Part shown: positions 1 to 17,909 of the stretch, piece by piece | How positions within the stretch are numbered: the first letter of the stretch is position 1 | Layout of the letters: each line of letters begins with the position of its first letter | From: a virus | IMG/VR virus record: IMGVR_UViG_3300021077_000115 | Span: 1 to 46,063 of that record | Length of the DNA stretch: 46,063 bases | Direction: 5' to 3' (one strand) | Made by a program: the position numbers and the translations under genes | Notes under the pieces: model-generated | The model's database searches: none | Told to the model about the DNA's origin: nothing | Seen by the model: only the letters and a program-made list of their open reading frames with translations

Positions 1-706
1 GCACGCGGCGGAACGACGCCAGAGAGAACCAGTTGGTCGCAGCGCACTGGCCAGGGTCGGGGTCGGGCGCCAGTGCCCGGGACAGCTCCTCGCCCGCAGA
101 GCTCGCCGCAAGCTCGGGAGGCTCGATGCGGCCCCCGGGCGCAGGCAGGAGCAGGAAGCACCTGCGGCAGGCGAGAGTCACGAACGCCGGCAGCTCCTCG
201 GGCGCCAGGCCCTGCAGGCCGGGCGCCGCCCTCACGAGCGTCTCGCGGACGAAGCGGGCGAAGTCTGCCTCGCACAGAGACTCGCCCGGGCCAGAGCAGT
301 AGTCCGAGAGCAGGGCGCCGACGGCACTCGCGGCCTCTGTTCGCCGGACGAGCCCGAGGAACAGCGAGGGCGTGGGGCCAGCCGGCGTGCGCGAGAGCAT
401 TGCGTACACACTCGGCTTGAAGTACCGCGCGGCCCGGGGCCCAGCCGCCTGCGCTGCCCGCCGGAATTCGTCGTACGAGAGGAACACGGGGAGCGGGACG
501 GGCGGCAGCAGAGGGACGCCGGCGCCGGCCACGGCAGGCGGCAGCGGCGGCAGCGGGTGCGCCTGGAGCAGGGCATCGCGGATCTTGATGATGTCGTCGG
601 GCGAGAGGGACTCTGCCCGGGCGCGGAGGAGGGCTCGCTGCCGCGCGGCCTGTAAGCCCGCGCCTTGCAGAGCCGCCGGCTGTCCCATCGCATCCACGAG
701 TTCCAT
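1..706 (-). CDS. Partial Pro/Ala-rich hypothetical protein. An open frame runs from the ATG at 706..704 to the window edge with no stop. It is not in the ORF track because it is incomplete.
   Basis: Manual reverse-complement translation gives MELVDAMGQPAALQG...PLPPLPPAVAGAGVPLLPPVPLPVFLSYDEFRRAAQ...FRRV with no stop over 235 codons. GC is ~70%. The listed ORFs 232..738(-), 372..854(+) and 73..420(+) are alternative frames of the same GC-rich DNA and look spurious, being Arg/Ser-rich. Confidence 0.35.
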   Translation of the reverse strand, partial: MELVDAMGQPAALQGAGLQAARQRALLRARAESLSPDDIIKIRDALLQAHPLPPLPPAVAGAGVPLLPPVPLPVFLSYDEFRRAAQAAGPRAARYFKPSVYAMLSRTPAGPTPSLFLGLVRRTEAASAVGALLSDYCSGPGESLCEADFARFVRETLVRAAPGLQGLAPEELPAFVTLACRRCFLLLPAPGGRIEPPELAASSAGEELSRALAPDPDPGQCAATNWFSLASFRRV

Positions 707-980
707 TGGGTCACTATTTTTGCATGATCCGACATCATCCATCCATCCGCGCGAGAATGTCGAGGAGAAGTTCGAATACTGGATTCCGAAAGGGATGGGG
801 GGCCGCAGGGCAGTCACTGAGTCTTCGCCTCAGAGCTCCTCCTTGGGCTGGTGAGGGATCTCAGCCTCCTCTTCGATAGGCACGGCCGCTGCAGCCTTGG
901 CGGCCTCCTCAGGGAACTCGAACGGAATCCTGAGCGGGCAGATCGCAGCAGAGGTAACGTTGAGACAAGGGCAGCGCGGC

Positions 981-1310
981 TCAACATCCGTACTTGGCGT
1001 TCTTCTTGATGAAGGCCAGGAGAGTGGCCAGAGTGCGGTCGCCCTCGTAGAGCACCGGCAGCGCTACCGGGCGCCCGAGCCGGTCGACGACCGTCACGGT
1101 GACGGCCGGGGAGCCCGCGCTGGCCCCGGCCCCGTTGGTGGCGACGCAGGTGAGGGTCAGGGGGCCGGCGGCGCCGGCCGAGAAGGTGACGGAGTTGGTG
1201 GTCGCGACCGAAGTGAGGGTGCCGCCACGAGGTCGTTGCACGTCCGCAATTCGATTCAAACAACGGTCGATGGTCGCCACTTTTGCCAAGACGACATCAC
1301 GCTCAACCAT
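981..1310 (-). CDS. Hypothetical protein in the GC-rich flank (109 aa).
   Basis: It is the ORF with the most plausible amino-acid composition among overlapping frames in 68% GC DNA (…VTFSAGAAGPLTLTCVATNG…LYEGDRTLATLLAFIKKNAKYGC). It is co-oriented with the cas-like operon upstream. There is no RBS evidence. Confidence 0.3.
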   Translation of the reverse strand: MVERDVVLAKVATIDRCLNRIADVQRPRGGTLTSVATTNSVTFSAGAAGPLTLTCVATNGAGASAGSPAVTVTVVDRLGRPVALPVLYEGDRTLATLLAFIKKNAKYGC

Positions 1311-1569
1311 GGCGAATCCTCTCGACCAGGGCCTGTTCGGTTTCTACCCCTTCACTTGTCGGAAGGGATTTGAATCTACCCCTCAACTCCACTGTCTTTT
1401 CAATCACTTGAACTAGCCTTCGCGAGCGCCTATCTTATTCGCCAAAAGAACTACACATCCATACACCAAACTTCAACCGCGATAGCTAGGATTTTCTCTG
1501 TGATTATAGTGAGTTGTGAGAATTGCGAGCGGTTGCAGCAGATATCGCACCACCCAACCGCTCAATAAA

Positions 1570-2097
1570 TCATCCAAAAACGTTCATCAAACCAAAACCA
1601 AAAGCCTTCCCGTGCCCGATGCCAGTATGTACCACACTAGCAAATCTTTCAAGATCCGTCACGTTCAAAAAACCCGTCACAAACACTGATGAGTGACAAC
1701 ATTTCATTCCCTTGCGATCACTCACCATCGTACCTTCGTCAATGACCACCTTGGACCGAATATCTGCCCCAATGCCAGACAACTTACCATCTACCCAAGC
1801 ATGAAGCCGGTCCCGATAAACCGGAAACCTTCGTCTCTTGTTGGACTTGACCGCGTTGAGCCGAATCGCAAACTGTACGTCACCAGAAAGACTCGATAAC
1901 GCCTGATCGGTTGTCTTGGCGAATTGTATTTCAAAGTTATCAGCAAACTTAGGGTCAATTTCCAGATCTGTTTCCACTACCAACCGAGCGCCAACCTTTT
2001 GGAACAACAACTTACCATCGCCAGGGAAGATTTCCTTAGCCATTTGATGATTCTTGTATCCGTCCTCGTACGCCCGATGAATGATGTAGACTTTCAT
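1570..2097 (-). CDS. cas6: Cas6-family crRNA endoribonuclease-like protein (Cas6e/Cas6f-like), 175 aa.
   Basis: The C-terminus GIGHGKAFGFGLMNV fits the Cas6 glycine-rich loop GhGxxxxxGhG and resembles the Cas6e/Cas6f C-terminal G(K/R)xxFGFGLL segment. Its size fits Cas6e/f. It is the last gene of the operon headed by Cas3 and overlaps the upstream gene by 4 nt. Confidence 0.55.
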   Translation of the reverse strand: MKVYIIHRAYEDGYKNHQMAKEIFPGDGKLLFQKVGARLVVETDLEIDPKFADNFEIQFAKTTDQALSSLSGDVQFAIRLNAVKSNKRRRFPVYRDRLHAWVDGKLSGIGADIRSKVVIDEGTMVSDRKGMKCCHSSVFVTGFLNVTDLERFASVVHTGIGHGKAFGFGLMNVFG

Positions 2098-3026
2098 TGT
2101 TGAGCCTTGTGGTATCCAGCAACTACCATATCAAGCGTTGTGTTCTGCAAGTCACAAACCCGATCAATTCGGACCAAACCACCATCAAAAATAGTGGCGC
2201 ACCCATTGCCATTACCAAACAGACCCAACTCTTTGGTGAAAACTGGTATGCAAATCCGCCCATCTAACCGAATCACATCGCATACACCTTTAGTCACTAG
2301 CGTCCTGAGGTATGGGCCAAGACCTTGATAGCCAGCCTGATATAAACCATTATCCTTGTTCCCTTCTAAGAGCTTCGCCAATGGCTCACATCTACTTTCC
2401 CTAGCTTTAACCACCAGCTTATTAACCCTAGCATCCTTGCTTTTCAAGAGAGTGTTTGCAACCTTCTCAAACAGCATCTCCTCGGCATTGCCACCGCAAA
2501 TATCGCTAGCAACCACGACCAATTCTACATATAGCTCATCTGGTAAAAGGTATTTAAACCTAATCCAGCTTGGAATAGCATATGACCAGCTATTATGCAT
2601 ACACTTTCTAATAGTCATCTTCTCGGTTAGATATACTACGTTCCCTTCCTTATCCTCTTTTGTAGCATTGTCTATATGAACAAAAGAACGCTTGGCAATT
2701 GCGACGAAGTTACCATAACTATTTACACAGGTTGGACGGTACCTGCTGATTGGGCGCATACCACACAAAACCCTAATCACATTCTCAATAAATGTAGCGT
2801 GAATCGTGTTCACTTGTTGCTCGACCCATTGAGATTGGATTCTATTATTACGAGATTTACCAATAAATATTCGGTCATCCTTCGATCGGCTGGTCATCGT
2901 TCCATCTACATCCTTCCAACGCTTTGGAAAGATTCCCGCATTCTCAAACCTGAGCACTAATGCGTAATCGTATGGCGGCATGATTTCCCCTGCATGTAAA
3001 CAAGGAATTAAGGTTGATGGAGGCAC
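2094..3026 (-). CDS. Cascade-like subunit, tentatively Cas5-like (310 aa). Identity is inferred from position and size only.
   Basis: It lies between the Cas7-sized gene and cas6 in the same tightly packed operon. There is a Gly-rich segment LGLFGNGNGCATIFDGG near the C-terminus. I recognise no family-specific motif with confidence. Confidence 0.3.
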   Translation of the reverse strand: MPPSTLIPCLHAGEIMPPYDYALVLRFENAGIFPKRWKDVDGTMTSRSKDDRIFIGKSRNNRIQSQWVEQQVNTIHATFIENVIRVLCGMRPISRYRPTCVNSYGNFVAIAKRSFVHIDNATKEDKEGNVVYLTEKMTIRKCMHNSWSYAIPSWIRFKYLLPDELYVELVVVASDICGGNAEEMLFEKVANTLLKSKDARVNKLVVKARESRCEPLAKLLEGNKDNGLYQAGYQGLGPYLRTLVTKGVCDVIRLDGRICIPVFTKELGLFGNGNGCATIFDGGLVRIDRVCDLQNTTLDMVVAGYHKAQQ

Positions 3027-3030
3027 TGAT

Positions 3031-4107
3031 CTACTTTTTCTTTGCAGCTGGCTTGGCAGGTTTCTCTTCCTTCACCGGCTTCTCGTAGCCAAACTTCTTC
3101 TTGTAACTATCGCATTTTTGTAATGCCTCTTCCTGCAGCTTCACTTTGGTGTAGGCCGTTGCAAAAGACTCGCCATCAAAAGCGCTAACATCGAATTTTT
3201 TACCATCAAAAATCTCAACCCAACCATCTGGATTGCCGAATAAATCCTCCAGAGGGTCGCTGACGATCTTGATGCTCACCGACGCCGTCTTGGCGCTTCC
3301 AGTAACAGTTCGAACTACATTGAATAGCGCCAATCGCCGAAGAATGTTCGTGGTTAGGAATTTGACCTGTGCCTGCGTAAGCAAAATTCCACACTCAGGA
3401 ATATCATACACATCACCATTCTTCTGGAAGAACGCAGGCTCCGGAATTTCTGAGCCCATCCGCCCTTTCAGAAGCTCGCGATATCTGGCGGCGTAGTCTA
3501 GGTCGAAACTCAACCGGTCATGGACATCGCTAAGCGAAATGAATGCCAACTCGCTCACATCAATAGCCCCGGAAAGTTCATAAGTAGTATCGCCTCGAAC
3601 TTCTCGCTTGAAGAATGATGTTTCTGCCACGTCTTCCGTTTTGTTCTCGCCAGTTTTTGGTTGACTGTTCGAGTATGTCTCTAGCATCGGGGCCGAACTA
3701 GTCACTGCCCTGGCATAGGATAATGCAAATGCAGACTTTCGCTTCCAACTTGAGCGATTGTCACGAGCAAACATATACCCGCGCTCCAGAAATGCCGGAT
3801 GAGCCACCGTGCTGAGTAACAAACCATCATCATGCATGACATTCGGAAGATGAATGAACATACAATCCTCATACATACTGTGACGAATGCAGTCCGCTGA
3901 TATGACACCTACTTTTTTTAGGTATTCCCTATCGTCACCGTCACGCCCCACCTCTGGATAGTAACGACCTTTGCCAAAGGACACGTTGTTGTGCCAAACG
4001 CTTTCTACATTGCGCTGTCGGTTCCAAATAAAGCGTTGGTCGTTGGAATCGAAGTTGACAATCCCAGAACCTTCAATAACTGCCTTTATGAAAATTGATT
4101 TAATCAT
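3031..4107 (-). CDS. Cascade-like subunit, tentatively Cas7-like backbone protein (358 aa) with a Lys-rich C-terminal tail.
   Basis: It sits immediately downstream of cas3, 22 nt after its stop. Its size is typical of Cas7e/Cas7f(v). The C-terminal KKKFGYEKPVKEEKPAKPAAKKK tail is basic and nucleic-acid-binding-like. The assignment rests on operon context. Confidence 0.3.
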   Translation of the reverse strand: MIKSIFIKAVIEGSGIVNFDSNDQRFIWNRQRNVESVWHNNVSFGKGRYYPEVGRDGDDREYLKKVGVISADCIRHSMYEDCMFIHLPNVMHDDGLLLSTVAHPAFLERGYMFARDNRSSWKRKSAFALSYARAVTSSAPMLETYSNSQPKTGENKTEDVAETSFFKREVRGDTTYELSGAIDVSELAFISLSDVHDRLSFDLDYAARYRELLKGRMGSEIPEPAFFQKNGDVYDIPECGILLTQAQVKFLTTNILRRLALFNVVRTVTGSAKTASVSIKIVSDPLEDLFGNPDGWVEIFDGKKFDVSAFDGESFATAYTKVKLQEEALQKCDSYKKKFGYEKPVKEEKPAKPAAKKK

Positions 4108-4129
4108 GTTATCCTATCTGTTACTTTCT

Positions 4130-6508
4130 TCACACTCGCGCTTTGACGAGACCAAGCGTTGCATCGTAGTACCACGTAAAGATTGGTAGTGGTGTTTCTC
4201 CACAACGAGCAAATGGCTTCAGGTTTTCAACCGTTAGCCTCTTTGGTTTCTTCTTACCAAAGAACATTTTCGTTAGTTCGGCATAGTCAAACTCACCTGT
4301 GGCCTCTAACGATTCCCATACCGTTTTCAATGTAGAAGATTCTATTCTTCTTCTATTATCAGCAATCAGATCCTTCAGTTCGATGTCTTGAACATTGAAT
4401 GTGAAAGGGCACCAAACTCCAGTTGTTCTGTTTTTCACCACAATAAAACACGAACTCGAACTATTCCTCAGCGTCTTGGCAGTTACAACTTTACTCTTGC
4501 CACTCTGATGTTTGCGCGCCCTTGGGAAGAATGTCTTCAACTTATCAATTGATATCAGATACTTATTTTTAATAAACGCAACTAGCTCATCGTTGTAAAC
4601 CTTATTGAATTTGTTATACAATCGGTATAGGAAATCCAAATCAACTGGTTCGGATGCCTCGCCCTCTAACATACGGCTCCAAAGATCCGATAGATGACAG
4701 CTGTACCGTTCGCTGATGGCCGACCTCTCACCTTTATTACTCCTAAGTTTAAGCATGACGAGTTCACATACCCCGTCTTGTTCTCCCCATCGGTTGATTC
4801 TTCCGAAAGTTTGTATATCGGATTCTGGTGATTCTATGGTTTTGAATAGCCCTCTGAAGCTGATGTCAAGAGCGGCCTGTAGAATCGGCGCTGAAACCAC
4901 AGTGCCATTCTTATCACCACCCTTCCCAAATGACTTAAGAATTCCATTCATTATCGCATGGCGATCTGGTTCTCCGTAGTTACTATGAACGATGCTAGTG
5001 TATCCGTTGCCGTAGCACCCTTGAACATTTCTGATCGATGAGTACATTGTCAAAGAACCACCAATTGGGTGTTCAACAAAGTCTTCATCGAAAGATATCT
5101 TGTAAAGCTTCTTATGCTGTGCTAGATAATGTTCAGTTGGATTTGGAAGGATTTTTGTCCTTCTAGATTCACCTTCACCTTCCCAGAATTTATGCATTAT
5201 CGATGGGGTAGCTGAGAGTAGCAGTGTATGACTGTTCGCACATACCAGATTGCGCGCCCTCATATAGATGACAAACGCCCCAAACAAAGCCTCATCATTA
5301 AGGAATTCATGAAACTCATCAAGTACCACATTGCGAGCTGTAACATCAAACAACCTCGCAATCGATTTTGAATCAACCATTGGCGATAGAAGGTTGTCAA
5401 TATTGGTTACCACAATGTCACAACCACAATCTGGTACACTTGGTGAGTTGGTAGCTTTACGCTCTCCTGCGTGGTACAGTTCAATGGAGATTGTACCAAG
5501 TCCAAGGATATCAATCTCCTTCAATAGATTTAAATATACACCTTCAGCAACTGCATTTCTTGGGCATACCCAATACACCGGTCCGGACTTCTGGGCTCCC
5601 CACATCAAACCAACCAGCGACTTACCAAATCCCGCAGAACCTTTTACTAATGTCGTTCGTTCACAAGAGTTTACAATGTCCTTTTGAATCTGAAATCGTT
5701 CCTGGTCATATGTGATTGGACATTGAAAATTTTCGTACCTTATATCCCTTCCCTTAGGGAAGTATGAATCAGCACTATTTTCAATCAGGTCATCCAGCTC
5801 TTCTATCGATAGCTTGGATACAATGTGGTCGGAGAAGATAACGCAACTCCTGGCAATCATGCGATGAGCGTTGGTCAGGCTACTTTCATCACCATCATCG
5901 GTAAACAACCTTGGAATATTGCGAGGTTCGTCATCAACGTCATCCTCTAGGTACTTGGTGACATCAAATGGGAACTGAACAGACTTCAGAATACCATCAA
6001 TTGTCTCTGATATCTTCGTCCATTCGTTTTCATCGAATAGTTTCAGCTCGCCAATGACGGTATGTGTGTTTCTAGGAGAGGTTTGATCTAAAATCTCGTA
6101 CGAATTCAGCAACGTACCGTGATGCCAATAGATCGCCTGCGGCCCGATGTCTTTGAACCGAACACCACGACCCTTGGCCTTTGCATGAAATGTCGCATAT
6201 ACCCATGAAATCTCATTGTGCCTTGGATATTCATGCTGTCCAGAGTATTTAGGATAATGCTTCTGTTTATTCTCCTCGCTATAGTCACTAGCCAAGGAAA
6301 TGTTGTTAAAATATACGGTACACTTCCCAATGTCATGAAGGAATGCCGACAAACCAATCACGTTGATTAGATCGTCATCGGAAATCCCAAGGTGCTTGGC
6401 GCAATGCATAGCTAACATCATCGCACCAACGCAGTGTTTTGTAAGTTCTTGTCTGTGGTCTGAATTAGCTAGCATACTAAAAATCCTCTCCCTCTTTGAA
6501 CACCTCAA
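4130..6508 (-). CDS. cas3: Cas3: N-terminal HD nuclease domain fused to a DExH superfamily-2 helicase (792 aa as tracked). The track start is a TTG. A better ATG start lies at 6475, giving MLANSDHRQ….
   Basis: HD motifs are present: H…LHDIGK (AFLHDIGKC), YPRHNEISW and IYWHHG, matching Cas3 HD motifs II-V. Helicase motifs are present: motif I GSAGFGKS, motif II VLDEFHEF (DExH), motif III LLLSATP and motif VI QTFGRINRWGE. The ATG at 6475 sits 1 nt after the TAG of the upstream ORF (TAGTATG). Confidence 0.85.
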   Translation of the reverse strand: MRCSKRERIFSMLANSDHRQELTKHCVGAMMLAMHCAKHLGISDDDLINVIGLSAFLHDIGKCTVYFNNISLASDYSEENKQKHYPKYSGQHEYPRHNEISWVYATFHAKAKGRGVRFKDIGPQAIYWHHGTLLNSYEILDQTSPRNTHTVIGELKLFDENEWTKISETIDGILKSVQFPFDVTKYLEDDVDDEPRNIPRLFTDDGDESSLTNAHRMIARSCVIFSDHIVSKLSIEELDDLIENSADSYFPKGRDIRYENFQCPITYDQERFQIQKDIVNSCERTTLVKGSAGFGKSLVGLMWGAQKSGPVYWVCPRNAVAEGVYLNLLKEIDILGLGTISIELYHAGERKATNSPSVPDCGCDIVVTNIDNLLSPMVDSKSIARLFDVTARNVVLDEFHEFLNDEALFGAFVIYMRARNLVCANSHTLLLSATPSIMHKFWEGEGESRRTKILPNPTEHYLAQHKKLYKISFDEDFVEHPIGGSLTMYSSIRNVQGCYGNGYTSIVHSNYGEPDRHAIMNGILKSFGKGGDKNGTVVSAPILQAALDISFRGLFKTIESPESDIQTFGRINRWGEQDGVCELVMLKLRSNKGERSAISERYSCHLSDLWSRMLEGEASEPVDLDFLYRLYNKFNKVYNDELVAFIKNKYLISIDKLKTFFPRARKHQSGKSKVVTAKTLRNSSSSCFIVVKNRTTGVWCPFTFNVQDIELKDLIADNRRRIESSTLKTVWESLEATGEFDYAELTKMFFGKKKPKRLTVENLKPFARCGETPLPIFTWYYDATLGLVKARV

Positions 6509-6953
6509 CCGCGCCGTGGTCCATTACAACCACAGTGTTGACCATCCATGCCTCTCGTAGCTTCTGGCCTTCCAGCGGGTCAAGTTCATCCAAGATTCCC
6601 TGCAGTCCCTCGCGCCCGGCAAGCCCACGCGCGAACGGAACCTCCCCAAGATCACGGAACTGTTGCCAATCGTGGCCGGGCATCAGGATGTCTGCCACCG
6701 CGCCGCCATGAGGATCGTCAACGTTGAGCAGCACGATAACCACTTCGGATGGTCGCCGACCCAACTCACGGACCCTTCGAGCGAAATGCTTAGCCCGCTC
6801 CAGTTGGAGTTCAAGAGTGCTGCGGCAAAGGCTTTTGTTGTGCTGTTGAATAGCGTCAATCATAGCACAGGCCATTGGATCAACCAAGACTAACTTCCCA
6901 TCAACCTCGGTGACGTAAGCTTCAGGTTCCATTTCAACCTCCACATACAGCAC
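6477..6953 (-). CDS. Hypothetical 158-aa protein encoded by a GC-elevated (~57%) island, directly upstream of and translationally coupled to cas3.
   Basis: It is a long ORF with sensible composition. Its stop abuts the cas3 ATG. There is a local GC jump relative to its neighbours. Its size resembles Cas11/Cse2-type small subunits, but I see no motif to support that. Confidence 0.45.
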   Translation of the reverse strand: MLYVEVEMEPEAYVTEVDGKLVLVDPMACAMIDAIQQHNKSLCRSTLELQLERAKHFARRVRELGRRPSEVVIVLLNVDDPHGGAVADILMPGHDWQQFRDLGEVPFARGLAGREGLQGILDELDPLEGQKLREAWMVNTVVVMDHGAVEVFKEGEDF

Positions 6954-6991
6954 GGCGGAGATTACAATCTCCGCCGTATTTTTGACTATGA

Positions 6992-8911
6992 TTACTTCTC
7001 GAAGTAACTATTCCACTTCTCTTGATAATTACCAACAACTACTTGATTTATCGGAACATCAATAATTTGCTCATTGTTCTTTTGGAACATACCAACAAGA
7101 TCTATTGGCTTAACTTCTCCGGTTTCAATTAGCTTTTGAGCAATCTCTCGGAATAACACCTTATGATCATTGATCATGTCAATGGCTGTGTTCTTTGCTT
7201 CCTTCAACATATCTTCAATTGTAACATTTGTGCGCGCAATGTCTGTATTGAATGAGTCACTGTGTGGCGATCCATCATGTACAACTCTGCTTTGGATACC
7301 ATCAAAAGCACATTGTCTAATGAAAAATGCCGCAAGTTCTGTGGCCCTTCCAATATCAGAGGACGCACCAACAGACTTCATTTCATCTCCGAAGAAAATC
7401 TCTTCGGCCGCTTGCCCAGCTAGACAAACAATAATCTCATCTTTGGTAATCTTTTTATTACCACTATAGATGTGTTGGCCTACGAACCCTTGAGAGCTCA
7501 GGTTTGATGTAATACTTGTGATTTGTGTAGGCGGTATCTTGTACAGCAGAGAATAAACAATAGCGTGTCCTGCTTCGTGTATTGAAACAAGGACAGTATC
7601 ATTGATATTCTTTTCCTTCTTTATCTTGGAAATTGATAGCTCCACTCTTCTAGAGATAGATTCATTTCCAATTTTACCAATTATTTCTTCCTGGCTATAG
7701 CTTACGTAAATTGTATCTATACCAAGTTCAATTGCCTTGAATAGAAAAACTGGAAGATAGTTATCAAAGATACTTGAAATTGTACTGTGAACTGGCCTAA
7801 CGCCCTGTACAGGGAAAACACCATTCTGATAAATTGTAGTGAATATAGACTCATCAGGTACAACTCTTATCTTATTGATAGCGTATACGCGATTGATTGT
7901 ATCATAAACATTTCGTTTGATGATACTCATATAGCTTGTTTTATTTAGTGACGGATATATAATATGATTGTTTCCGAACCTAGCTACTTGTTCTGGCTTG
8001 AATCTTCTAAGGAGCGCGCTCTTGATTCTTACTACATTTATCTTCTTTGAATATTCGTGGAAGATATCAGCATCAATATCTGCATTCGATACATCAGTTG
8101 ACATTGAATAAGCTTCATCTATATTTCCAGCTATGATGATAAGCATCTTTGAATAAGATACACCTTCGAAGGTGGCATCATTATTCAAAGCCTCTTGTCC
8201 CTTCTTGAGCTTTGTCTCTTGATCCCACTGCATGATCTCTTCAGCGGAACCATTATAGTTTAGAAGCTTCTTCAGCCGTTGTGCTGTCCAATATGAGTTC
8301 TTATATTTAAATGTCTTGGGACGACCTGGTTTCTTTTTTTCTTCGTCCTTATTTTTTGGCGCTCCTTCAGGAGCATCTGGTTCTTCGCCTTCATCTAGAA
8401 CTTCGTTATGATGATAATAGAGATCATCGAAGAGTATTTCCATGATCTCCTTTTTCTTATCAGATGCCGATTGAAACTTACCATCAGACAATAGCATCCA
8501 TACATCCTGTAGTCTTTTCTTTGGAACATCGCATCCAGCGTCATCAACTGTTCTAAATCTCTGCATTTCATCAAGCAGCAGAACTGACGGCTTGTCTGGT
8601 TGAATGTCGGCGTATTCAATGTATGATTGGATCTTGTCTATATAACTTTCAGTATCCATTTGTAGCTCAACAAATGAATCTGACATTTTGATTAGTCTTA
8701 CAAATGTACGAACCAGATCTGTTTTTCCAGAACCAGTTAACCCCCAGAGATTGACAATTACTGGACGGATCATTAGTTCCGGCATCAAGTACCATACGCG
8801 AACTGAGTCAATAAATTGATCGATTATACCATCAATTCCTACGAATTTTTCCTTAAGCTTATTACCAATTTGTACAAGCTCACTGTCTTTTCTACTTAAT
8901 AATTCGTCCAT
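6992..8911 (-). CDS. Soluble P-loop ATPase fused to a HExxH zinc-metalloprotease domain (FtsH/M41-like architecture without an obvious transmembrane anchor), 639 aa.
   Basis: Walker A is NLWGLTGSGKTDLV and Walker B is VLLLDEMQ. A C-terminal HEAGHAIVY motif resembles the FtsH HEAGH zinc-binding motif. It is the first gene of the minus-strand run that continues into cas3. Confidence 0.6.
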   Translation of the reverse strand: MDELLSRKDSELVQIGNKLKEKFVGIDGIIDQFIDSVRVWYLMPELMIRPVIVNLWGLTGSGKTDLVRTFVRLIKMSDSFVELQMDTESYIDKIQSYIEYADIQPDKPSVLLLDEMQRFRTVDDAGCDVPKKRLQDVWMLLSDGKFQSASDKKKEIMEILFDDLYYHHNEVLDEGEEPDAPEGAPKNKDEEKKKPGRPKTFKYKNSYWTAQRLKKLLNYNGSAEEIMQWDQETKLKKGQEALNNDATFEGVSYSKMLIIIAGNIDEAYSMSTDVSNADIDADIFHEYSKKINVVRIKSALLRRFKPEQVARFGNNHIIYPSLNKTSYMSIIKRNVYDTINRVYAINKIRVVPDESIFTTIYQNGVFPVQGVRPVHSTISSIFDNYLPVFLFKAIELGIDTIYVSYSQEEIIGKIGNESISRRVELSISKIKKEKNINDTVLVSIHEAGHAIVYSLLYKIPPTQITSITSNLSSQGFVGQHIYSGNKKITKDEIIVCLAGQAAEEIFFGDEMKSVGASSDIGRATELAAFFIRQCAFDGIQSRVVHDGSPHSDSFNTDIARTNVTIEDMLKEAKNTAIDMINDHKVLFREIAQKLIETGEVKPIDLVGMFQKNNEQIIDVPINQVVVGNYQEKWNSYFEK

Positions 8912-9023
8912 TTATAACTCCACTAAATTACAAACTTACGTTTGAAAACCCTATTAAATATTTCCAGCTCTGAGGCTCTAAGCTCTGGACGTGATTCTTT
9001 TGGAAGTTGATCTGCCAAGAGCT

Positions 9024-9242
9024 TTATGTGGTTGTACACTTATCTATCTTTTCAAAAGTCAAATTGAAGCCTTTATTTTTGTACAAGACAATCAATTCAT
9101 CAAGTGTGATTTTTTCAGATAAGACTGATGAATAACCACTAAATGTAGATCGATCTGGAGCGTATTCGTAAATACGAAATGTTCCATTTTCATCAACTTG
9201 ATAATAAGACATAAATATGCCCCGAACACCGCTCGGGGCCAC
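9024..9242 (-). CDS. Hypothetical protein (72 aa).
   Basis: ORF with plausible composition in a compact gene run. Confidence 0.35.
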   Translation of the reverse strand: MAPSGVRGIFMSYYQVDENGTFRIYEYAPDRSTFSGYSSVLSEKITLDELIVLYKNKGFNLTFEKIDKCTTT

Positions 9243-9257
9243 GCGGATGTTAATGAA

Positions 9258-9449
9258 TCAACGTGCCGGCAAGCCTACTGCTTTGCGAAGTGATTCACGA
9301 AGGTTGCTTTTATCACGCCCTTCGCAAGTGATAAGTCGTTGAACCGCCTCAGTAGCTTCTTGTATTGCTCTGAGATAATCACCGGCTTGTGCATGTTCCA
9401 CGGCATGATGCAAGCAATTGATGGCGTCGATTGGGTTTGGGTTTTCCAT
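9258..9449 (-). CDS. Hypothetical small helical protein (63 aa).
   Basis: Its composition (AINCLHHAVEHAQAGDYLRAIQEATEAVQRL) is more protein-like than the overlapping 99-aa frame 9275..9574. Confidence 0.35.
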   Translation of the reverse strand: MENPNPIDAINCLHHAVEHAQAGDYLRAIQEATEAVQRLITCEGRDKSNLRESLRKAVGLPAR

Positions 9450-9473
9450 ATTTTTCCTTTAGCTGATTCTGAG

Positions 9474-9995
9474 TCATTGCCCAGATGGCCACTTGAATGC
9501 TTCAGCCTTGCACCAAAACACTGCCCAAGCATCCTTAAGACGAGATAATAAGCCTGTATAAGCACGCGTACCATTCAATGGTCTAGCTGGTACGTAACGA
9601 CCATCAATTAGTGCATAGAAAGAGAATGGAGATTCTCCAGCAAACGCTATCATATACCAGTACATAAAAGTAAAGTCATATCCAGCTGGGTATCCAACAA
9701 ACACTGGCCTATCTCTACTAGACGCTCTCTTTACCCACTGAACGAACTCTGGCATGACCACTTCAGCTGGGCGAGTATCTTTTCGGCAAGCAGCCCAAGC
9801 CTCGGGCTGGCCCTTCCACCATTCCATAGTATTAGGATCGGTGGTTGCTTCAGAAAGAGTATCTAAATTGGCAGTGTAAGTCTCGATCATTTTACCTGCA
9901 TCAGTGAACACCGCGCAGCCAAATGACAACATGGAATTTCTTCCAGGAATTGGCCCATCAGATTCTATATCAACGGAGAAATAAAGCTCAGACAT
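9474..9995 (-). CDS. DEDD-family (DnaQ-like) 3'-5' exonuclease.
   Basis: The Exo I motif is FSVDIESDG. There is a later YDF/acidic-aromatic motif (YPAGYDFTFMYWY). Its size fits small phage exonucleases. Confidence 0.55.
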   Translation of the reverse strand: MSELYFSVDIESDGPIPGRNSMLSFGCAVFTDAGKMIETYTANLDTLSEATTDPNTMEWWKGQPEAWAACRKDTRPAEVVMPEFVQWVKRASSRDRPVFVGYPAGYDFTFMYWYMIAFAGESPFSFYALIDGRYVPARPLNGTRAYTGLLSRLKDAWAVFWCKAEAFKWPSGQ

Positions 9996-9996
9996 A

Positions 9997-10512
9997 TTAC
10001 TTTCTTCGGCGCAAAGTCTCGTATGAAAAAATTATTGGTAGGTTACTGATACGATCAACTGCTTCTTTGGTTGATGTTGATATCACTTCCCATTTAGTAT
10101 CATCGTATTTTGGGAAGAATGCATCACCCTCGAACTCTCTGTGAATGAGAGTTAGTTCCAGATAATCGGCAACATCCATTGCCAATCGATAGATTGTGGC
10201 ACCACCAGTAATGAATGCTTTCTCCACGCCTTTGTCTCGCACGTAGTAAATTGCTTCATTGAAGTCATGAAAGACTGTTACACCTGGAGGTTGATAATAG
10301 TGGTCAAGGGTAAGGATGATATTTTCACGTCCAGGCAATGGGCGAGATTTATTCGGTAATGACATATAGGTTAGATCACCCATGATACATGGGAATCCCA
10401 TAGTGAGATCTTTGAAATGTCTAAAGTCCTCACTGATACGCCACGGGATGCTATTGTTCCTACCGATAATATTGTTCTGCGCAACGGCAGCAATGATAAT
10501 AATATCTGTCAT
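9997..10512 (-). CDS. folA: Dihydrofolate reductase.
   Basis: The N-terminal IIAAVAQNNIIGRNNSIPWRISEDFRHFKDLT matches the DHFR signature (IAA…IG…LPW…ED…F…T). Its length is 171 aa. It overlaps thyA by 4 nt. Confidence 0.85.
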   Translation of the reverse strand: MTDIIIIAAVAQNNIIGRNNSIPWRISEDFRHFKDLTMGFPCIMGDLTYMSLPNKSRPLPGRENIILTLDHYYQPPGVTVFHDFNEAIYYVRDKGVEKAFITGGATIYRLAMDVADYLELTLIHREFEGDAFFPKYDDTKWEVISTSTKEAVDRISNLPIIFSYETLRRRK

Positions 10513-11390
10513 ACGGCTATTTCAAAAGCAATCTTAGGATGGTGTTTATATTCCTCAACCCTAGAATCTTTATGACTCCAAGAGAAGATGTCGGTAAAAT
10601 TATCTGTTACAATAAGTGGAAGCTTATATGTTTCTCGCTGCAGTTGTAGCATCATACCTTCAAGATGATTTACATAGATATGAGTATCTGCCAGAAACCC
10701 TACAAGCCTACCCTCCTGTAGATTGGATTCTTTAGCCAGAAGGTGAAGAAGCAATCCATAACTTGCAATGTTGAATGGTAAACCCAAAGCAACATCAACA
10801 CTACGCTGATTCCATAGTAGATTTAGCTTACCGTTAATTACGGTTACCTGAAATCCATAGTGACAAGGAGGTAGGGCCATGTCTAATAAGTCTGGAGGGT
10901 TCCATGCTGATACAATCATTCGGCGATCAGATGGGTCTGACTTTAGCTTCTTGACCATATTGCCTAGCTGATCAATACCAACACCAACTGGGGCCTCATT
11001 GTAACTTATATATACGGCCCCAAAGTTTCTCCATTGCCAGCCATAGATTGGACCAAGATCGCGCTCAGCTTTCATCTTGGCTTTCGTTTCATCATCATGG
11101 CCATAAGGAACTAATTGTGGATTGCACCACTCGTCCCAGATATGATTGTTGTTATCTATCAACCACTGTTTGTCAGTGAGCCCTTTAATAAAGAATTCAA
11201 GCTCAGAAGATATGAGTCGCAACGGAACCGATTTGGTTGTGAGTAATGGAAAGCCATCGCTCATATCATGTTCAAACATTGCGCCCGGAATAGTGATGGC
11301 ATCAACGCCTGTTCTATTCTGCTTGCGCACACCAACATCAAATATCTTTCGCACGATATCTAGATAAGACTTCATTATTACCCTCCACAA
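10509..11390 (-). CDS. thyA: Thymidylate synthase (ThyA type).
   Basis: A full-length ThyA-like sequence (…RTGVDAITIPGAMFEHDM…PPCHYGFQ…) with an active-site Cys context. A strong SD, GGAGGGTAATAATG, precedes it. Confidence 0.9.
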   Translation of the reverse strand: MWRVIMKSYLDIVRKIFDVGVRKQNRTGVDAITIPGAMFEHDMSDGFPLLTTKSVPLRLISSELEFFIKGLTDKQWLIDNNNHIWDEWCNPQLVPYGHDDETKAKMKAERDLGPIYGWQWRNFGAVYISYNEAPVGVGIDQLGNMVKKLKSDPSDRRMIVSAWNPPDLLDMALPPCHYGFQVTVINGKLNLLWNQRSVDVALGLPFNIASYGLLLHLLAKESNLQEGRLVGFLADTHIYVNHLEGMMLQLQRETYKLPLIVTDNFTDIFSWSHKDSRVEEYKHHPKIAFEIAV

Positions 11391-11517
11391 CGGCCATCAC
11401 ATTTAGCGCATTCTCCACCAACACCCAAAAGGTTCTATTTTGAAGATCATTACGAACGAAATGTACTTTCATAAATTACCTGTATGCAACAGTAGTCACC
11501 CAATCCAGCGTCATTCC

Positions 11518-11901
11518 TTAATTATCTTTAACAACTGTATAGTCCTTGTCAAGTTTAGCCATCGTCTCAACAGCTTCTTCTGGATTCTTAGCAAGGCTAT
11601 GAGGGTTATCTGGAGAATACCCAGGAACTGTATAGGTCAGGAGTCTATGACTTCCGTATTCAACAACCTTTCTGGTCCAGCAAAAGAACTTATTGAAGAA
11701 CCATTTTGAATTATAGGCTTCGAATATATATACCTTTACAGTCTCTATAGATCCTGGGAAGGCTGCTTTTATATAAACTATTTTCTCAAAGTCCAGTTTT
11801 GTTTCTGGGAAGTCAATTAGGATAGCGTTCTTGAAATCATCAATAACACTTCCTGTTGAAAGAATATTTCTATTTCTATGAAAGCTAATCTTCTTTTCCA
11901 T
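11518..11901 (-). CDS. Hypothetical protein (127 aa).
   Basis: ORF only. Confidence 0.4.
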   Translation of the reverse strand: MEKKISFHRNRNILSTGSVIDDFKNAILIDFPETKLDFEKIVYIKAAFPGSIETVKVYIFEAYNSKWFFNKFFCWTRKVVEYGSHRLLTYTVPGYSPDNPHSLAKNPEEAVETMAKLDKDYTVVKDN

Positions 11902-12006
11902 TATATTACCAAAGAGTTATTTTGTTTTGATAAACAAAAGCGGATCTTTGTGCCGGCAAATCACCAACCAATTCTTTCAATGCTTCGAATCTATTTGTAT
12001 CAGGAT

Positions 12007-12240
12007 TCATTCTGGTTGCTTTCCGGCCGCTCTATCCATTGTCTCATCAATGGCAGCCGATAATTCTGCGATGCGATATATCTCGGCTATTTTTTCTGGA
12101 GTTATATCTTCAAGAAAATAAATCCAATCTCCTTGGTAATCACAATCCAAACAAATCTCAGTTCCCAAACGCCATCGTGGGCTCATCACACTTGGGCGCT
12201 TAGTGTTGTGGCTATTACACTTCGAGCACTTCATGTTCAC
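12007..12240 (-). CDS. Small zinc-ribbon protein (77 aa).
   Basis: CSKC…CLDC Cys pairs. Confidence 0.4.
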   Translation of the reverse strand: MNMKCSKCNSHNTKRPSVMSPRWRLGTEICLDCDYQGDWIYFLEDITPEKIAEIYRIAELSAAIDETMDRAAGKQPE

Positions 12241-12502
12241 CTATGAATTCATCAATCGCATTTTTGAACTTGATGATTTCTTCAATCAAAGCTTGGCCGG
12301 CTTTCTCAGGGCTATCGTAATCATGCACAGAAATCATAGATCCCTTACCATGTCTCTTTACGATGCACGCACTCCAAGCTCCCCATAATTCTTGTCGTAT
12401 AAGAATCCTGGAGTTTTCCGAGAAACCTTCGTAGCGGTTTAATCCCTTATTGAGACCCAATGTCAGGGCAACTGTTCCGACCTTTATTGTCCGGTTAAGC
12501 AT
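12215..12502 (-). CDS. Hypothetical protein (95 aa).
   Basis: ORF only. Confidence 0.4.
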   Translation of the reverse strand: MLNRTIKVGTVALTLGLNKGLNRYEGFSENSRILIRQELWGAWSACIVKRHGKGSMISVHDYDSPEKAGQALIEEIIKFKNAIDEFIGEHEVLEV

Positions 12503-12548
12503 GCACGCTCCAAGCTACCGGTGCCGGACATGGTACCCGATTACTCGC

Positions 12549-12746
12549 CTAGTAGCAACGATAAAACATCGAGAATAGTACGGCAACGATGGTAATTAAT
12601 ACCATGATAAGTGGTATATTGAAAGTTGATTGTGTAATTGTTACTGCTGTAGATTTTGCCTGGTTTTCTTCAGGTTGTTCTTGAATTTGATTATCAGGAA
12701 TTGTGGGTGGTGGCGAAGGAATTGTATCATGATTATCATTAAACAT
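12549..12746 (-). CDS. Small membrane protein (65 aa, one C-terminal TM segment). It is a possible lysis-associated protein.
   Basis: The hydrophobic stretch IPLIMVLITIVAVLFSMFY lies directly downstream of the peptidoglycan hydrolase gene. Confidence 0.4.
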   Translation of the reverse strand: MFNDNHDTIPSPPPTIPDNQIQEQPEENQAKSTAVTITQSTFNIPLIMVLITIVAVLFSMFYRCY

Positions 12747-12754
12747 ATTTCTTC

Positions 12755-13444
12755 CTAGGCATTGTCATCTAAACTTTGAGAAGCTGTCATCGCTACAAGA
12801 TTTAGTATTCTATTCTTCTCGTCATTTGTAAGGTTATTATCCACAGGAATTGAATAATCAACCTTTAGTTTTGATATAGTTCCAAATACTGAAGTTAAAG
12901 TTCTAGTATAACTAGACTCATCAGCTGTATAATATCCCTGAGTACGAAGCATGTGTGAAAATTGTGCTGGGTTTCCGGCGCATACCGCCGGCCATGCATT
13001 GGTGAATCGCTTATTCAATAGACCAATATAATCAATGCAACCCTCAAGTAGATTATTGAATGCCCTAAATCTGCATCCTGGGTGTTTCGGATAAAACCAG
13101 ATAATGGCAGTCCCATCTCCACGGTACTGAGTGACCTTGGCAGTAGATGGATCCTTGGCAGCGTATGCATCCGCTACAGACTTCTTGAGTATCTCATTAC
13201 AAGCGAAGTAGCAGTAATCATGGCCATCGCCATCCTTGGATTTTACGTTGCCTAGATTGTAGCACCACATTGAAGAGCCATTTCCCGTTTCTAAACACCA
13301 TTGGCTTGCAAGTACCCAAATAGATTCTTTTTTTGGAACATCTTCAAACAAATGAAACCAAGCATCATACAATGATTTTATAACTTCTTCTCTGCTAACT
13401 TTGGTTTTTTGAGCAATTAATTCACTTGGCATAATAAAATGCAA
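12755..13444 (-). CDS. Glucosaminidase-like peptidoglycan hydrolase (putative endolysin).
   Basis: QWCLETGNGSSMWCYNLGNVK resembles the mannosyl-glycoprotein endo-beta-N-acetylglucosaminidase (FlgJ/LytD-type) catalytic Glu region. Confidence 0.5.
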   Translation of the reverse strand: MHFIMPSELIAQKTKVSREEVIKSLYDAWFHLFEDVPKKESIWVLASQWCLETGNGSSMWCYNLGNVKSKDGDGHDYCYFACNEILKKSVADAYAAKDPSTAKVTQYRGDGTAIIWFYPKHPGCRFRAFNNLLEGCIDYIGLLNKRFTNAWPAVCAGNPAQFSHMLRTQGYYTADESSYTRTLTSVFGTISKLKVDYSIPVDNNLTNDEKNRILNLVAMTASQSLDDNA

Positions 13445-13497
13445 ACATATTACATTTTATCCATAACCAACATTGAAGCAACGATATATAGTTTAGT

Positions 13498-14343
13498 ATG
13501 AAAGCCTGTATTTACGTAGTAAAAAACATTATCACATCACAAATTATTTACGTTGGAAAGACATCTAATCCTAGTAAGAGATGGGGTAGGCACAAGACAC
13601 ATAAAAGCGGAAGATTATTAAAATATATGTCTGAAAATGGCGGACATCTTAGTTTTGAATTGACTCCAGTTATCTGGTTTGATACTGAGGAAATGGCATT
13701 TGAAGCTGAAGCTTATTTCATACAGATTTGTCTAGAGCAACAAATTCCGCTAATAAATCAAGACAGAGGCGGTATTGGAACAATTAGCGGAAGAAAGGCC
13801 TCGAAAGAAACACGTGAAAAGCTATCTGAAATGCAAAAGAAAAGATATTTAGATCCAGAATTTAAAGAAAAAATATCCAAATATTTTCAAGAAAACAAAG
13901 AAGTTTGGTTATCAAAACTAACAGATGCAATGTCAAAGCCAGAAGTTAGAAAGAAGATATCTGATGCAAGGATACATCAATACAAATTACTAACAGACGA
14001 AGCTAGAAAGGAACTTACCAAGAAAGCTACAGAGGCAATTAAAGGAACAAAACTTACACAAGCAAGAAAAGATCAAATATCAACAGATAGACTTAAATGG
14101 TTCAGTGAACATCCAGAAGCTCGTATTGAGGTTGGTAATCGCAGAAGAGGAAAAAATCACACAGATGAAACAAAAATAAGCATAGGACAAAAGATGAGAC
14201 TTCTTTCAGATGAACAGATTGTAACTTGTCGTAAGCTTCATTCTGAAGGGCTTTCTATGAAGAAGATAAGTGAAAGGTTAGGTGTATCAATCAAACCAGT
14301 GTTTAATGCAATAAATTGCCGAGGTATATATGGCATAGCGTGA
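13498..14343 (+). CDS. GIY-YIG homing endonuclease with NUMOD-like repeats and a C-terminal HTH (Seg/I-TevI-like).
   Basis: The N-terminal CIYVVKN…IIYVGKT…R…H is a GIY-(10 aa)-YVG motif. There are repeated basic helical modules (ETREKLSEMQKKRY, EVRKKISDARIHQYK). The C-terminus is KKISERLGVSIKPVFNAINC. Confidence 0.75.
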   Translation: MKACIYVVKNIITSQIIYVGKTSNPSKRWGRHKTHKSGRLLKYMSENGGHLSFELTPVIWFDTEEMAFEAEAYFIQICLEQQIPLINQDRGGIGTISGRKASKETREKLSEMQKKRYLDPEFKEKISKYFQENKEVWLSKLTDAMSKPEVRKKISDARIHQYKLLTDEARKELTKKATEAIKGTKLTQARKDQISTDRLKWFSEHPEARIEVGNRRRGKNHTDETKISIGQKMRLLSDEQIVTCRKLHSEGLSMKKISERLGVSIKPVFNAINCRGIYGIA

Positions 14344-14368
14344 TATATGCTTAACAAAGGAGAGTGCA

Positions 14369-14686
14369 ATGTTTACGTGGATTATCAATATCATACGGGC
14401 AATAATTAATCTGTTCTGCGCTCCTCTTCCATATGGAGCGTTTATGTTGAAAAAAGAATCTGGAAAAATGTTCGTCTCTGGAAAAGGCGAAGTAATAATT
14501 CAAATGAAGGTGCGAAAACCTACTCATGTAGAAGTGTTTTTTATTGACCACCCAGTTACTTGCGATGGAAACAAGCACGATCATCTTGAGCATAAAGTCC
14601 ATAGACATATGTTCGAACATAAGACTGATCTTATTATCAAGTGGCATGTTGGTGGAGTAAGAGAAATAGAATATATTTATCACTAA
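14369..14686 (+). CDS. Hypothetical protein, paralog A of a tandem pair. The start may be the internal Met MLKKESGKMF at about 14444.
   Basis: About 55-60% identity by eye to the next gene (KMF[VI]xGxxEVIIxMKVRKPxHxEVFFIDHPxxCDGN…DLxIKWHVGGVREIEYIY). AAGGAG lies upstream. Confidence 0.5.
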   Translation: MFTWIINIIRAIINLFCAPLPYGAFMLKKESGKMFVSGKGEVIIQMKVRKPTHVEVFFIDHPVTCDGNKHDHLEHKVHRHMFEHKTDLIIKWHVGGVREIEYIYH

Positions 14687-14695
14687 TGGATTTAT

Positions 14696-15004
14696 ATGGG
14701 ATTAAAAAAACACTCTGGCAAAATGTTTATCTATGGAAATGATGAGGTAATAATTCCAATGAAAGTTCGTAAGCCAGTTCATGCTGAAGTATTTTTTATT
14801 GATCACCCAATTCCATGTGATGGCAATAGACGTGATAAAGTTGAATGCAAAATAGTTAGGCATGTAGGCGTCGCACCACATACTGCTTATAATCCAGGAA
14901 TGGCTGCAATGTTTGGAACATCAAGGCTACCTGATTGTACCACTGATTTAGTTATAAAATGGCACGTAGGCGGAGTAAGAGAAATTGAATACATCTATAC
15001 CTAA
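14696..15004 (+). CDS. Hypothetical protein, paralog B of the tandem pair.
   Basis: See paralog A. It shares the C-terminal WHVGGVREIEYIY. Confidence 0.5.
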   Translation: MGLKKHSGKMFIYGNDEVIIPMKVRKPVHAEVFFIDHPIPCDGNRRDKVECKIVRHVGVAPHTAYNPGMAAMFGTSRLPDCTTDLVIKWHVGGVREIEYIYT

Positions 15005-17134: not shown

Positions 17135-17459
17135 CTGCAGATTTCCTTTTACTCTCATACCAATGCCTATATTGAGCGAACCATTCTCGAACGTAGTCAG
17201 CGTCATCTAGATCTATTTCCTCTAATGGAGGCGGCGCTGAATTCAGTGCAGCAAGGCTTTTGACACTAGCCTTCTCTTGGTTCCTGAACTTTCGGCGCTC
17301 TTCAATGTTAGCATCGATGCGCTGGTCTATTAGCTCATTCATTGCTTTGACAAAACGAGCTGATGAATCCCTTGCATCTCCTAGATCGGCATTGCCGGTT
17401 CTAAGATCATTCTGGGCTTTAATTGCCTCTATCAATGATACAAGTAGCATATCAACCAT
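17124..17459 (-). CDS. Hypothetical protein (111 aa).
   Basis: ORF only. Confidence 0.4.
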   Translation of the reverse strand: MVDMLLVSLIEAIKAQNDLRTGNADLGDARDSSARFVKAMNELIDQRIDANIEERRKFRNQEKASVKSLAALNSAPPPLEEIDLDDADYVREWFAQYRHWYESKRKSAVTG

Positions 17460-17498
17460 GTCCCACCTCAGTGATTAACATGCTACATTATGCTAAGT

Positions 17499-17909
17499 CT
17501 ATTCCGTTGGGAATATACTCTCTGGCATTATTTGACCGATCCAATTATTAAACATCTCACCATCATTATGTTCGGTCTTCATAACAATATTAATCAGTTT
17601 GGCAAATCTTTTTTTAGATCGAAATGCTGATATGTGACAAAGAATATAATCTGATGTAGAGATGTCGGCAACACCTATCATTCTTAGTTTTGGATTGCCA
17701 TATGCTCTAAGATTGTTTCTTTGTCTTCCCTTGATCCATAATCCAAATTCTTCCGGATCTTTTATCACGCTCATTTGGATAGACCTTTTGGCAATGAATG
17801 TCCTCATATCACTCAATTGTTTATCCAAGAAAAGCAAATGAGTAACTGGAACTGCCGTCGCCAACACCACACCATCAACCACTACATCTGCAACCAAAGG
17901 GGCCGTCAA
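17499..17909 (-). CDS. Hypothetical protein (136 aa).
   Basis: ORF only. Confidence 0.4.
   Translation of the reverse strand: MTAPLVADVVVDGVVLATAVPVTHLLFLDKQLSDMRTFIAKRSIQMSVIKDPEEFGLWIKGRQRNNLRAYGNPKLRMIGVADISTSDYILCHISAFRSKKRFAKLINIVMKTEHNDGEMFNNWIGQIMPESIFPTE

Follow-up and report, generated by a model that had tools for sequence, protein, structure and literature searches.

A probable Cas8-less, I-F2-like type I CRISPR-Cas module with its own array on a phage-like metagenomic element, its array apparently cut short by an assembly chimera

Among type I CRISPR-Cas systems, the I-F2 variant (formerly I-Fv) forms a functional Cascade from Cas5, Cas7, Cas6 and CRISPR RNA (crRNA), in which Cas5 reads the protospacer-adjacent motif (PAM) and the Cas7 backbone recruits Cas3 (PMC4937334, PMC12956352), and I-F2 systems are tied to mobile elements (PMC12956352). 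Additionally, nearly all CRISPR systems of huge phages lack Cas1, Cas2, and Cas4 (PMC7162821). Here, we analyzed a cas operon in a stretch of 46,063 nucleotides (nt), positions 1 to 46,063 of the IMG/VR virus record IMGVR_UViG_3300021077_000115 (the window), for which the I-F2 system of Shewanella putrefaciens CN-32 (PDB 5O6U, 5O7H, and 9G44) is the closest described system. An earlier reading of the letters alone (the sequence-only reading) had presented the operon as a minimal type I cassette without a CRISPR array. Our results indicate that the locus is very probably a Cas8-less, I-F2-like type I interference module with an array of its own, and that its array-less appearance results from an assembly chimera passing through spacer 1.

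Five closely packed open reading frames (ORFs) occupy the minus strand across positions 1570-6953, and the operon order is cas3, cas7 (Cas7fv-like), cas5-like, and cas6 (Cas6e family), followed by the leader and the CRISPR array (Table 1). The four Cas proteins together comprise ~1,600 amino acids (aa). The genes named in the sequence-only reading, namely Cas3, ORFs of 358 and 310 aa, and a 175-aa protein, were all present, the 310-aa ORF more likely encoding 295 aa, and each of the quoted motifs was found in the translations (LHDIGK, IYWHHG, GSAGFGKS, DEFHEF, SAT, QTFGRINR, and the C-terminal G-rich loop of Cas6, GIGHGKAFGFGLM). For cas3, the mechanical ORF list gives a TTG start at 6508 (792 aa); gene callers on related (sibling) contigs give the ATG at 6475 (781 aa). 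The protein matched Pfam Cas3_HD, DEAD, and Cas3-like_C_2, NCBIfam cas3_HD above its cutoff, and the PADLOC model Cas3fv (E=5.6e-59; model positions 108-770 of 951). Because the Cas3fv alignment starts at model position 108 and query residue 12, with ~11 residues preceding the HD domain, Cas3 has no N-terminal Cas2 domain or fusion, as had been read from the sequence.

The protein encoded next to cas3 matched Cas7fv of PADLOC (E=4.5e-14) and NCBIfam (E=9.5e-19) as well as Pfam Cas7fv-like, and phmmer aligned it with the Cas7fv chain 5o6u_C of the PDB (E=8e-9). Its AlphaFold2 model, built with 26 homologues (predicted local distance difference test, pLDDT, 86), had as its best Foldseek matches the Cas7fv chains in three I-F2 Cascade structures, 9G44, 5O6U, and 5O7H (9g44_E and 5o6u_D; E ~1e-17, TM-score 0.6-0.7, 22% identity), with the remaining Cas7 proteins scoring only ~1e-6. 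The protein is a member of the Cas7f2 (Cas7fv) backbone family, and a distant one, because its NCBIfam score of 67.8 bits falls below the equivalog cutoff of 200.

The gene held in a fixed position between cas7 and cas6 corresponds to an ORF of 310 aa, and both the gene callers and all homologues favor the ATG at 2981, giving 295 aa. The 310-aa ORF matched no profile and showed no detectable sequence similarity to Cas5fv models. In structure prediction, the model of the 295-aa protein (14 homologues; pLDDT 73; predicted TM-score 0.71) showed a core of the RNA recognition motif (RRM) type with a helical insertion. Foldseek returned nothing significant for the latter model, and a weak resemblance to Csf3 was likewise not significant. 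We assign this protein to Cas5 with moderate confidence, on a relation visible at the level of the fold only and consistent with gene position, and consider it a candidate PAM reader in place of Cas8.

The 175-aa protein matched Cas6e in Pfam (PF08798, E=9e-16), PADLOC (2e-17), and TIGR01907, and also type IV Cas6 (1e-14), and no match to Cas6f was found in the Pfam, NCBIfam, and PADLOC profile searches. Its His17 (NHQ) aligns, within a low-scoring stretch, with the LHQ histidine of Escherichia coli CasE (His20 in the alignment numbering), which we take to be the catalytic residue. This histidine is invariant in nine family members, and the G-rich loop is conserved too. With only two genes between cas3 and cas6, identified as Cas7 and Cas5, the cassette has neither Cas8 nor Cas11, and the sequence-only reading was right in finding no large subunit and in relating this minimal type I cassette to the I-F variant (I-Fv / I-F2).

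Table 1. Coordinates of the cas operon, the CRISPR elements, and adjoining features in the window
Feature	Position	Strand	Description
Presumed foreign DNA, 69% GC	1..1303	.	base 1303 common to repeat 2 of sibling contig L014, hence ambiguous
Spacer 1	1304..1339	-	36 nt, CGAACAGGCCCTGGTCGAGAGGATTCGCCATGGTTG; identical (100%) to the first L014 spacer
CRISPR repeat 1	1340..1375	-	36 nt, ATTCAAATCCCTTCCGACAAGTGAAGGGGTAGAAAC; single copy in the window
CRISPR leader	1376..1569	-	194 nt; (near-)identical in six contigs; full arrays after it in sibling contigs L004 and L014
cas6	1570..2097	-	Cas6e family, predicted pre-crRNA endoribonuclease; 175 aa
cas5-like	2094..2981	-	295 aa; RRM core with ~90-residue helical insertion (~139-230)
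cas7	3031..4107	-	Cas7fv-like backbone subunit, 358 aa; profile, phmmer, and structure matches
cas3	4130..6475	-	HD nuclease and superfamily 2 (SF2) helicase, stand-alone; 781 aa from the ATG at 6475
151-aa ORF	6477..6932	-	stop overlaps the cas3 start (ATGA); no family match

Compared with I-F2, the genes point to the same kind of Cascade, made of Cas5, Cas7, and Cas6 without Cas8 or Cas11 and accompanied by an HD-helicase Cas3. Cas7 has its nearest structural and sequence relatives in I-F2, Cas3 best matches the Cas3fv profile, and the modelled Cas5-like protein, like Cas5 of I-F2, carries an extra domain on an RRM core. However, Cas3 lacks a Cas2 fusion, an adjacent Cas1 is missing, the RNase is of the Cas6e family in place of the Cas6f of I-F2, the repeats (36 nt) and spacers (~33-40 nt) are longer than the 27-28 and 32 nt of I-F2 (PMC12956352), the Cas5-like protein lacks detectable similarity to Cas5fv models, and Cas7 lies far below the Cas7fv equivalog cutoff. 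These differences make it very unlikely that we are dealing with an ordinary I-F2 (or I-E) locus of familiar architecture, with cas1 and cas2-3 just beyond the assembled region. Such a locus would explain why Cas7 and Cas3 are nearest to I-F2 proteins, and the stretch inspected spans ~56 kb around the operon, but a Cas2 domain would not fit into Cas3, no NCBIfam model matches the Cas5-like family, and about twelve related loci contain no Cas1 within 10 kb. The sequence-only reading had also allowed for a conventional array with cas1-cas2 immediately outside the window; the array was indeed found in sibling contigs, and no cas1-cas2 was found beside it.

Other described systems share some of these features. 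As in type I-E of E. coli and T. thermophilus, the endoribonuclease is of the Cas6e family, with an N-terminal histidine at the catalytic position and a G-rich loop, and the repeat hairpin is placed to leave a 5' handle of ~8 nt; unlike I-E, there is no gene or profile match for Cas8e (Cse1) or Cas11 (Cse2), Cas7 and Cas5 are not of I-E type, the repeats are longer, and Cas1-Cas2 are missing. Carriage on a phage-like element of large size, an array of short or medium length, the lack of Cas1, Cas2, and Cas4, and a spacer matching another genome of the same community recall the CRISPR-Cas systems of huge phages (Al-Shayeb et al. 2020, PMC7162821), although the type I variant described there is I-C-like, with processing by Cas5d, no Cas6, and another helicase replacing Cas3 (PMC7162821). 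Phage ICP1, in contrast, has a full I-F1-type system with Cas8f (Csy1), Cas1, and Cas2/3 (PMC10161043). Type IV-A is similar in its mobile-element carriage, its lack of adaptation genes, and the match to Cas6e-like/type IV Cas6 profiles, the resemblance of the Cas5-like model to Csf3 being weak and not significant; it differs in that the Cas3 described here has an intact HD nuclease instead of CasDinG, no match to DinG or Csf1 was obtained, and Cas7 is I-F-like and not Csf2-like. Subtype I-F4 is defined by an HNH-Cas8f fusion (PMC12669027), which sets it apart from this cassette. The 2025 classification contains one variant intermediate between I-F1 and I-F2, and none that could be matched to the present combination. 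In the full-text literature searched, whose coverage is incomplete so that this is absence of evidence only, we found no description of a Cas7fv-like protein combined with Cas6e and a stand-alone Cas3.

The 46-kb window contains no multi-copy repeat-spacer array according to Tandem Repeats Finder (TRF) and direct-repeat scans at several stringencies, and to this extent the sequence-only reading was correct. It does contain a leader, a repeat, and a spacer at 1304-1569, the rest of the array having been lost to an assembly join. Two Logan contigs with identical cas6 both end ~220 nt downstream of this gene, within hairpin-containing sequence, and the single repeat was recognized only once both were seen ending at one place. 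A 28-nt core of the repeat occurs once in the window (1340-1367; chance expectation none) and several times at the end of an IMG/VR contig, and the 36-nt unit occurs seven times in sibling contig L014 and at least three times in L003, with close variants present 16 times in L004. Contig L014 (JGI 3300046484, 52 kb) is identical to the window over 17,609 bp without a mismatch (its positions 1-17609 equal window 1303-18911). On L014, cas6 is followed by seven 36-nt repeats, beyond which lie genes for an HNH protein, a 137-aa protein, an NAD-dependent DNA ligase, and PcfJ. In L004 (JGI, 196 kb), whose cas region has 99% DNA identity to the window, 16 repeats directly follow the shared leader, and the array has the same neighbors as in L014; the L003 array adjoins an HNH-sized ORF. 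Both L014 and L004 thus combine near-identical repeats with unique spacers of similar length beside cas genes, as in a bona fide array; the window holds one repeat and one spacer. These comparisons indicate that the locus has its own CRISPR array directly downstream of cas6, which in the real genome would comprise at least seven repeats of 36 nt.

A truly array-less Cas3-Cascade module, either supplied with crRNAs by host or distant arrays or repurposed for an array-free function, is extremely unlikely in the light of these data. The sequence-only reading had raised both options, and the window, with no multi-copy array and no adaptation genes, gave it reason to do so. However, the leader, repeat 1, and spacer 1 are in place, the identical contig L014 has the full array of seven repeats at the same position, L004 has 16, and all more distant relatives have arrays as well; moreover, the repeat is absent from the GTDB species genomes, so no compatible host array is known. 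The system is best called a poorly annotated I-F2-like variant, neither array-less nor repurposed, that would work in the ordinary way.

The join itself is located precisely. Identity between the window and L014 stops at window 1303, exactly at the end of spacer 1: this spacer in L014 equals window 1339-1304, and it is followed by repeat 2 in L014 and by 69%-GC DNA in the window. At the junction, the GC content steps from ~45% to 69%, and the GC content at third codon positions (GC3) reaches 0.81-0.83 in the ORFs of 1-1303. Where the window has this DNA, the siblings hold HNH, ligase, and PcfJ genes, and four independent Logan contigs break off within repeat 1. In the simplest interpretation, the assembler produced window 1-1303 as a chimeric extension by passing from spacer 1 into a genome with the matching protospacer, and only one repeat and one spacer remain in the window because the assembly left the array inside spacer 1. 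The 69%-GC DNA appears to be the protospacer-bearing target of spacer 1 and not a part of the phage-like genome, and at least one spacer would be directed at a high-GC genome of the same community or sample.

A biological origin of the junction at ~1303, through recombination with the target via the 36-nt spacer-protospacer identity or through deletion of the array beside captured high-GC DNA, is quite unlikely, though the window sequence is continuous there and recombination over such short homology is conceivable. The break falls exactly at the spacer end with an abrupt GC step, all siblings from other samples have the array and the HNH and ligase genes at this site, other assemblies break or collapse at repeat 1 in a way typical of assemblers, and the high-GC segment is unrelated to the element. 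The 69%-GC segment had no DNA match in phage records or in any sibling locus, no Pfam domains, and no protein homologues, its 236-aa ORF had no translated match in plasmid records, spacer 1 had no match in IMG/VR, and its 109-aa ORF was not found on record. Apart from spacer 1 in the window, no spacer match was detected outside the arrays in the fetched loci. On the minus strand, this segment has two high-GC3 ORFs, one of 109 aa starting within the protospacer and one that exceeds 236 aa and continues past the window edge.

In two long contigs from other assemblies, the array is collapsed to one hybrid repeat (L015, 17530-17660) or absent (L009, 8871-9111). Collapse of arrays by the assembler is recurrent in this family and would mislead array-based screens. 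Recognizing the missing array as an assembly artefact, with a spacer bridging to its own target, removes a false lead; chimeric contigs of this kind provide a direct link from spacer to target, and when metagenomes are scanned they can give rise to false 'orphan cas' loci as well.

The spacers are unique, and most measure 33-40 nt, a single one being 27 nt long. Despite the near-identity of the L004 cas region to that of the window, L004 and L014 have none of the extracted spacers in common, L014 and L003 have the two spacers farthest from the leader in common, and degenerate repeats occur at the array ends distal to cas6. This pattern points to polarized, ongoing acquisition by which the arrays have been turned over. 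The L004 array (11609-12725) contains two repeat variants, eleven leader-proximal copies with the loop CGACAAG and the tail GTCGAAAC, and older distal copies with the loop CAATAAG and the tail GTAGAAAC, which suggests repeat drift or recombination between arrays.

The repeats of four lineages (window/L014, L008, L011, and L020) each form a hairpin with 6-8 bp that stops 7-8 nt short of the 3' end, with a conserved 3' tail, GTWGAAAC. The stems vary by compensatory changes (CCCTTC/GAAGGG, CCCTGC/GCAGGG, CTCTTC/GAAGAG, and CCCGCC/GGTGGG), a covariation argued from the individual folds and not from a pair-count test, an ungapped repeat alignment having left the 5' stem arms out of register. Cas6e and Cas6f, acting on hairpins of this geometry, produce a 5' handle of 8 nt (values for I-E in PMC4937334), and by analogy the repeat of this system would be processed likewise. 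The repeat matched no CRISPR-DR family in Rfam.

As the sequence-only reading had stated, the window encodes no adaptation genes: no Cas1, Cas2, or Cas4 model of PADLOC matched its 51 other ORFs, and none of the three appears in the precomputed Pfam lists for the 10 kb beyond the array of the sibling contigs. The same four-gene cassette was present in every relative examined, comprising the L008, L011, L016, L019, and L020 lineages (Cas7 identity 66% to 35%) and three GTDB loci from metagenome-assembled genomes (MAGs), each with an array, and Cas7 identity among the relatives goes down to 28-35%. For the three MAG loci, no Cas1 is among the Pfam matches listed for the 10-kb flanks, where a strong hit would show and a weak Cas2 could escape; the PADLOC table being saturated by Cas3 models, the absence of Cas1 is taken from the Pfam table. 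The absence of Cas1 within 10 kb in about twelve related loci includes a chromosomal one. On a 325-kb Terrimicrobiaceae scaffold (L023), the cassette is situated amid the chromosomal genes for CheX, a response regulator, a YkuD transpeptidase, and GpsA; therefore, phages are not the only carriers of this design.

A full HMMER scan with a Cas5-like profile retrieved 390 clusters at 50% identity (E<=1e-3), 265 of them at E<=1e-10, indicating a sizeable metagenomic family. No NCBIfam model matched ten sampled members, and the few that are named are called 'hypothetical protein'. A distant member (P0060) belongs to the same cassette, but the Cas6 encoded there is a classical one (PF01881) and not of the Cas6e type; an exchange of the Cas6 module seems to have taken place within the family. 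A distant branch (L025, 8906-9694; L026, 6510-7298) likewise has a 262-aa classical Cas6 (PF01881), with an extra 74-aa ORF between cas3 and cas7. Lineages L011, L012, and L020 have the array between cas5 and cas6. A single-protein search of IMG/VR gave no Cas7 relatives, and megablast of the locus against phage records gave no match.

With regard to the carrier, the window encodes thymidylate synthase, dihydrofolate reductase (DHFR), NAD synthetase, several HNH and GIY-YIG homing endonucleases, endonuclease VII, and an FtsH-like AAA/M41 protein. One sibling contig belongs to IMG/VR, and identical Cas5 and Cas7 proteins are found on a 463-kb contig labelled 'Candidatus Pacearchaeota archaeon' by NCBI. 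The carrier is likely a huge phage or another large mobile element that was binned into a MAG. Upstream of a related cassette by ~7 kb, on a contig labelled Bacteroidota by NCBI (L016, 1-347), there is a match to the anti-Pycsar Apyc1 family (Pfam PF23023), which fits a phage-like carrier.

By analogy with the described systems, we infer the processing site, stoichiometry, PAM reading, Cas3 recruitment, adaptation in trans, and biological role as follows. The array would be transcribed from the leader, and Cas6 would cut at the 3' base of each repeat hairpin, producing a 7-8-nt 5' handle ((G)UAGAAAC) and remaining bound to the 3' hairpin. The Cas5-like protein may cap the 5' handle, its helical insertion reading the PAM in place of Cas8, and the ~36-nt guide would be carried by ~6-7 Cas7 subunits, which would form the R-loop without the help of Cas11. 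Recruitment of the stand-alone HD-helicase Cas3 would then lead to degradation of the target. New spacers would join at the leader end through adaptation proteins not encoded beside the locus, being those of the host or encoded elsewhere on the element. The element probably directs the system at competitors or at host DNA.

Several observations weigh against this interpretation. Its functional part is drawn from sequence, structure prediction, and homology. The check for cas1 and cas2 spans ~56 kb around the cassette, and identical proteins sit on a contig of 463 kb. The exact repeat was absent from 185,579 GTDB species genomes and, in JGI metagenomes, was found only in the L004 contig; targets of L014 spacers 2-4 were absent from IMG/VR, and in the one protospacer known, the repeat occupies the PAM side in the window, leaving no comparison with the 5'-GG PAM that Cas5 reads in I-F2. 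Furthermore, the 'phage' label is given because of gene content and the IMG/VR membership of the sibling contig, and no virion genes are among the 25 families of matches listed for the window.

The evidence is evenly poised on a broader proposal, that these loci form a distinct, widespread, and so far unannotated lineage of Cas8-less I-F2-like systems, characterized by a stand-alone Cas3, a Cas7fv-like backbone, a divergent Cas5, an exchangeable Cas6, ~36-nt guides, fast array turnover, and no adaptation genes of their own, and residing on huge phage-like elements and some chromosomes. In such a lineage, arrays turn over without own adaptation genes, and acquisition would therefore proceed in trans or by an unrecognized route. 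Since arrays differ between near-identical elements with no Cas1-Cas2 nearby, spacer acquisition by mobile-element CRISPR is testable here. With another Cas6, an unfused Cas3, and longer guides, the cassette also broadens the hypercompact I-F2 design, itself of interest to genome editing.

The ORF upstream of cas3 (Table 1) had been included, as a 158-aa ORF at 6477-6953, in the range of the system by the sequence-only reading. We considered it as a small subunit or an accessory gene and rejected it as part of the core, as the L008, L011, L019, and L020 lineages lack it and none but the closest relatives keep it; among the components of the system it is not conserved. It may act as an accessory, regulator, or anti-defence gene, and the surrounding kilobase is somewhat GC-richer than its neighbors. 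Directly upstream of the cas operon, a gene on the minus strand (6992-8911) encodes a protein of 639 aa in which an AAA-type P-loop is combined with an FtsH-like M41 peptidase domain at the C terminus; the L004 lineage has a block of Band_7, YqiJ, and radical-SAM genes instead.

Genes for TnpB / IS605 OrfB (Cas12f1-like_TNB) recur near the cassettes (L020, 5791-6492; L008, 15338-16459; L010, 1080-2201; L025, 15819-16900), and the L020 array is separated from cas6 by a TnpB fragment. Elsewhere in the window, one ORF matches the Pfam ice-binding-like adhesive domain (pAdhesive_15), and a 443-aa ORF (30503-31834) contains five 30-nt in-frame tandem units of the GGxGGxxSSxxDV type (30806-30985). 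Downstream of the L020 cassette (8145-9321), thirteen 78-nt in-frame tandem repeats extend over two adjacent ORFs and represent a repeat protein unrelated to CRISPR.

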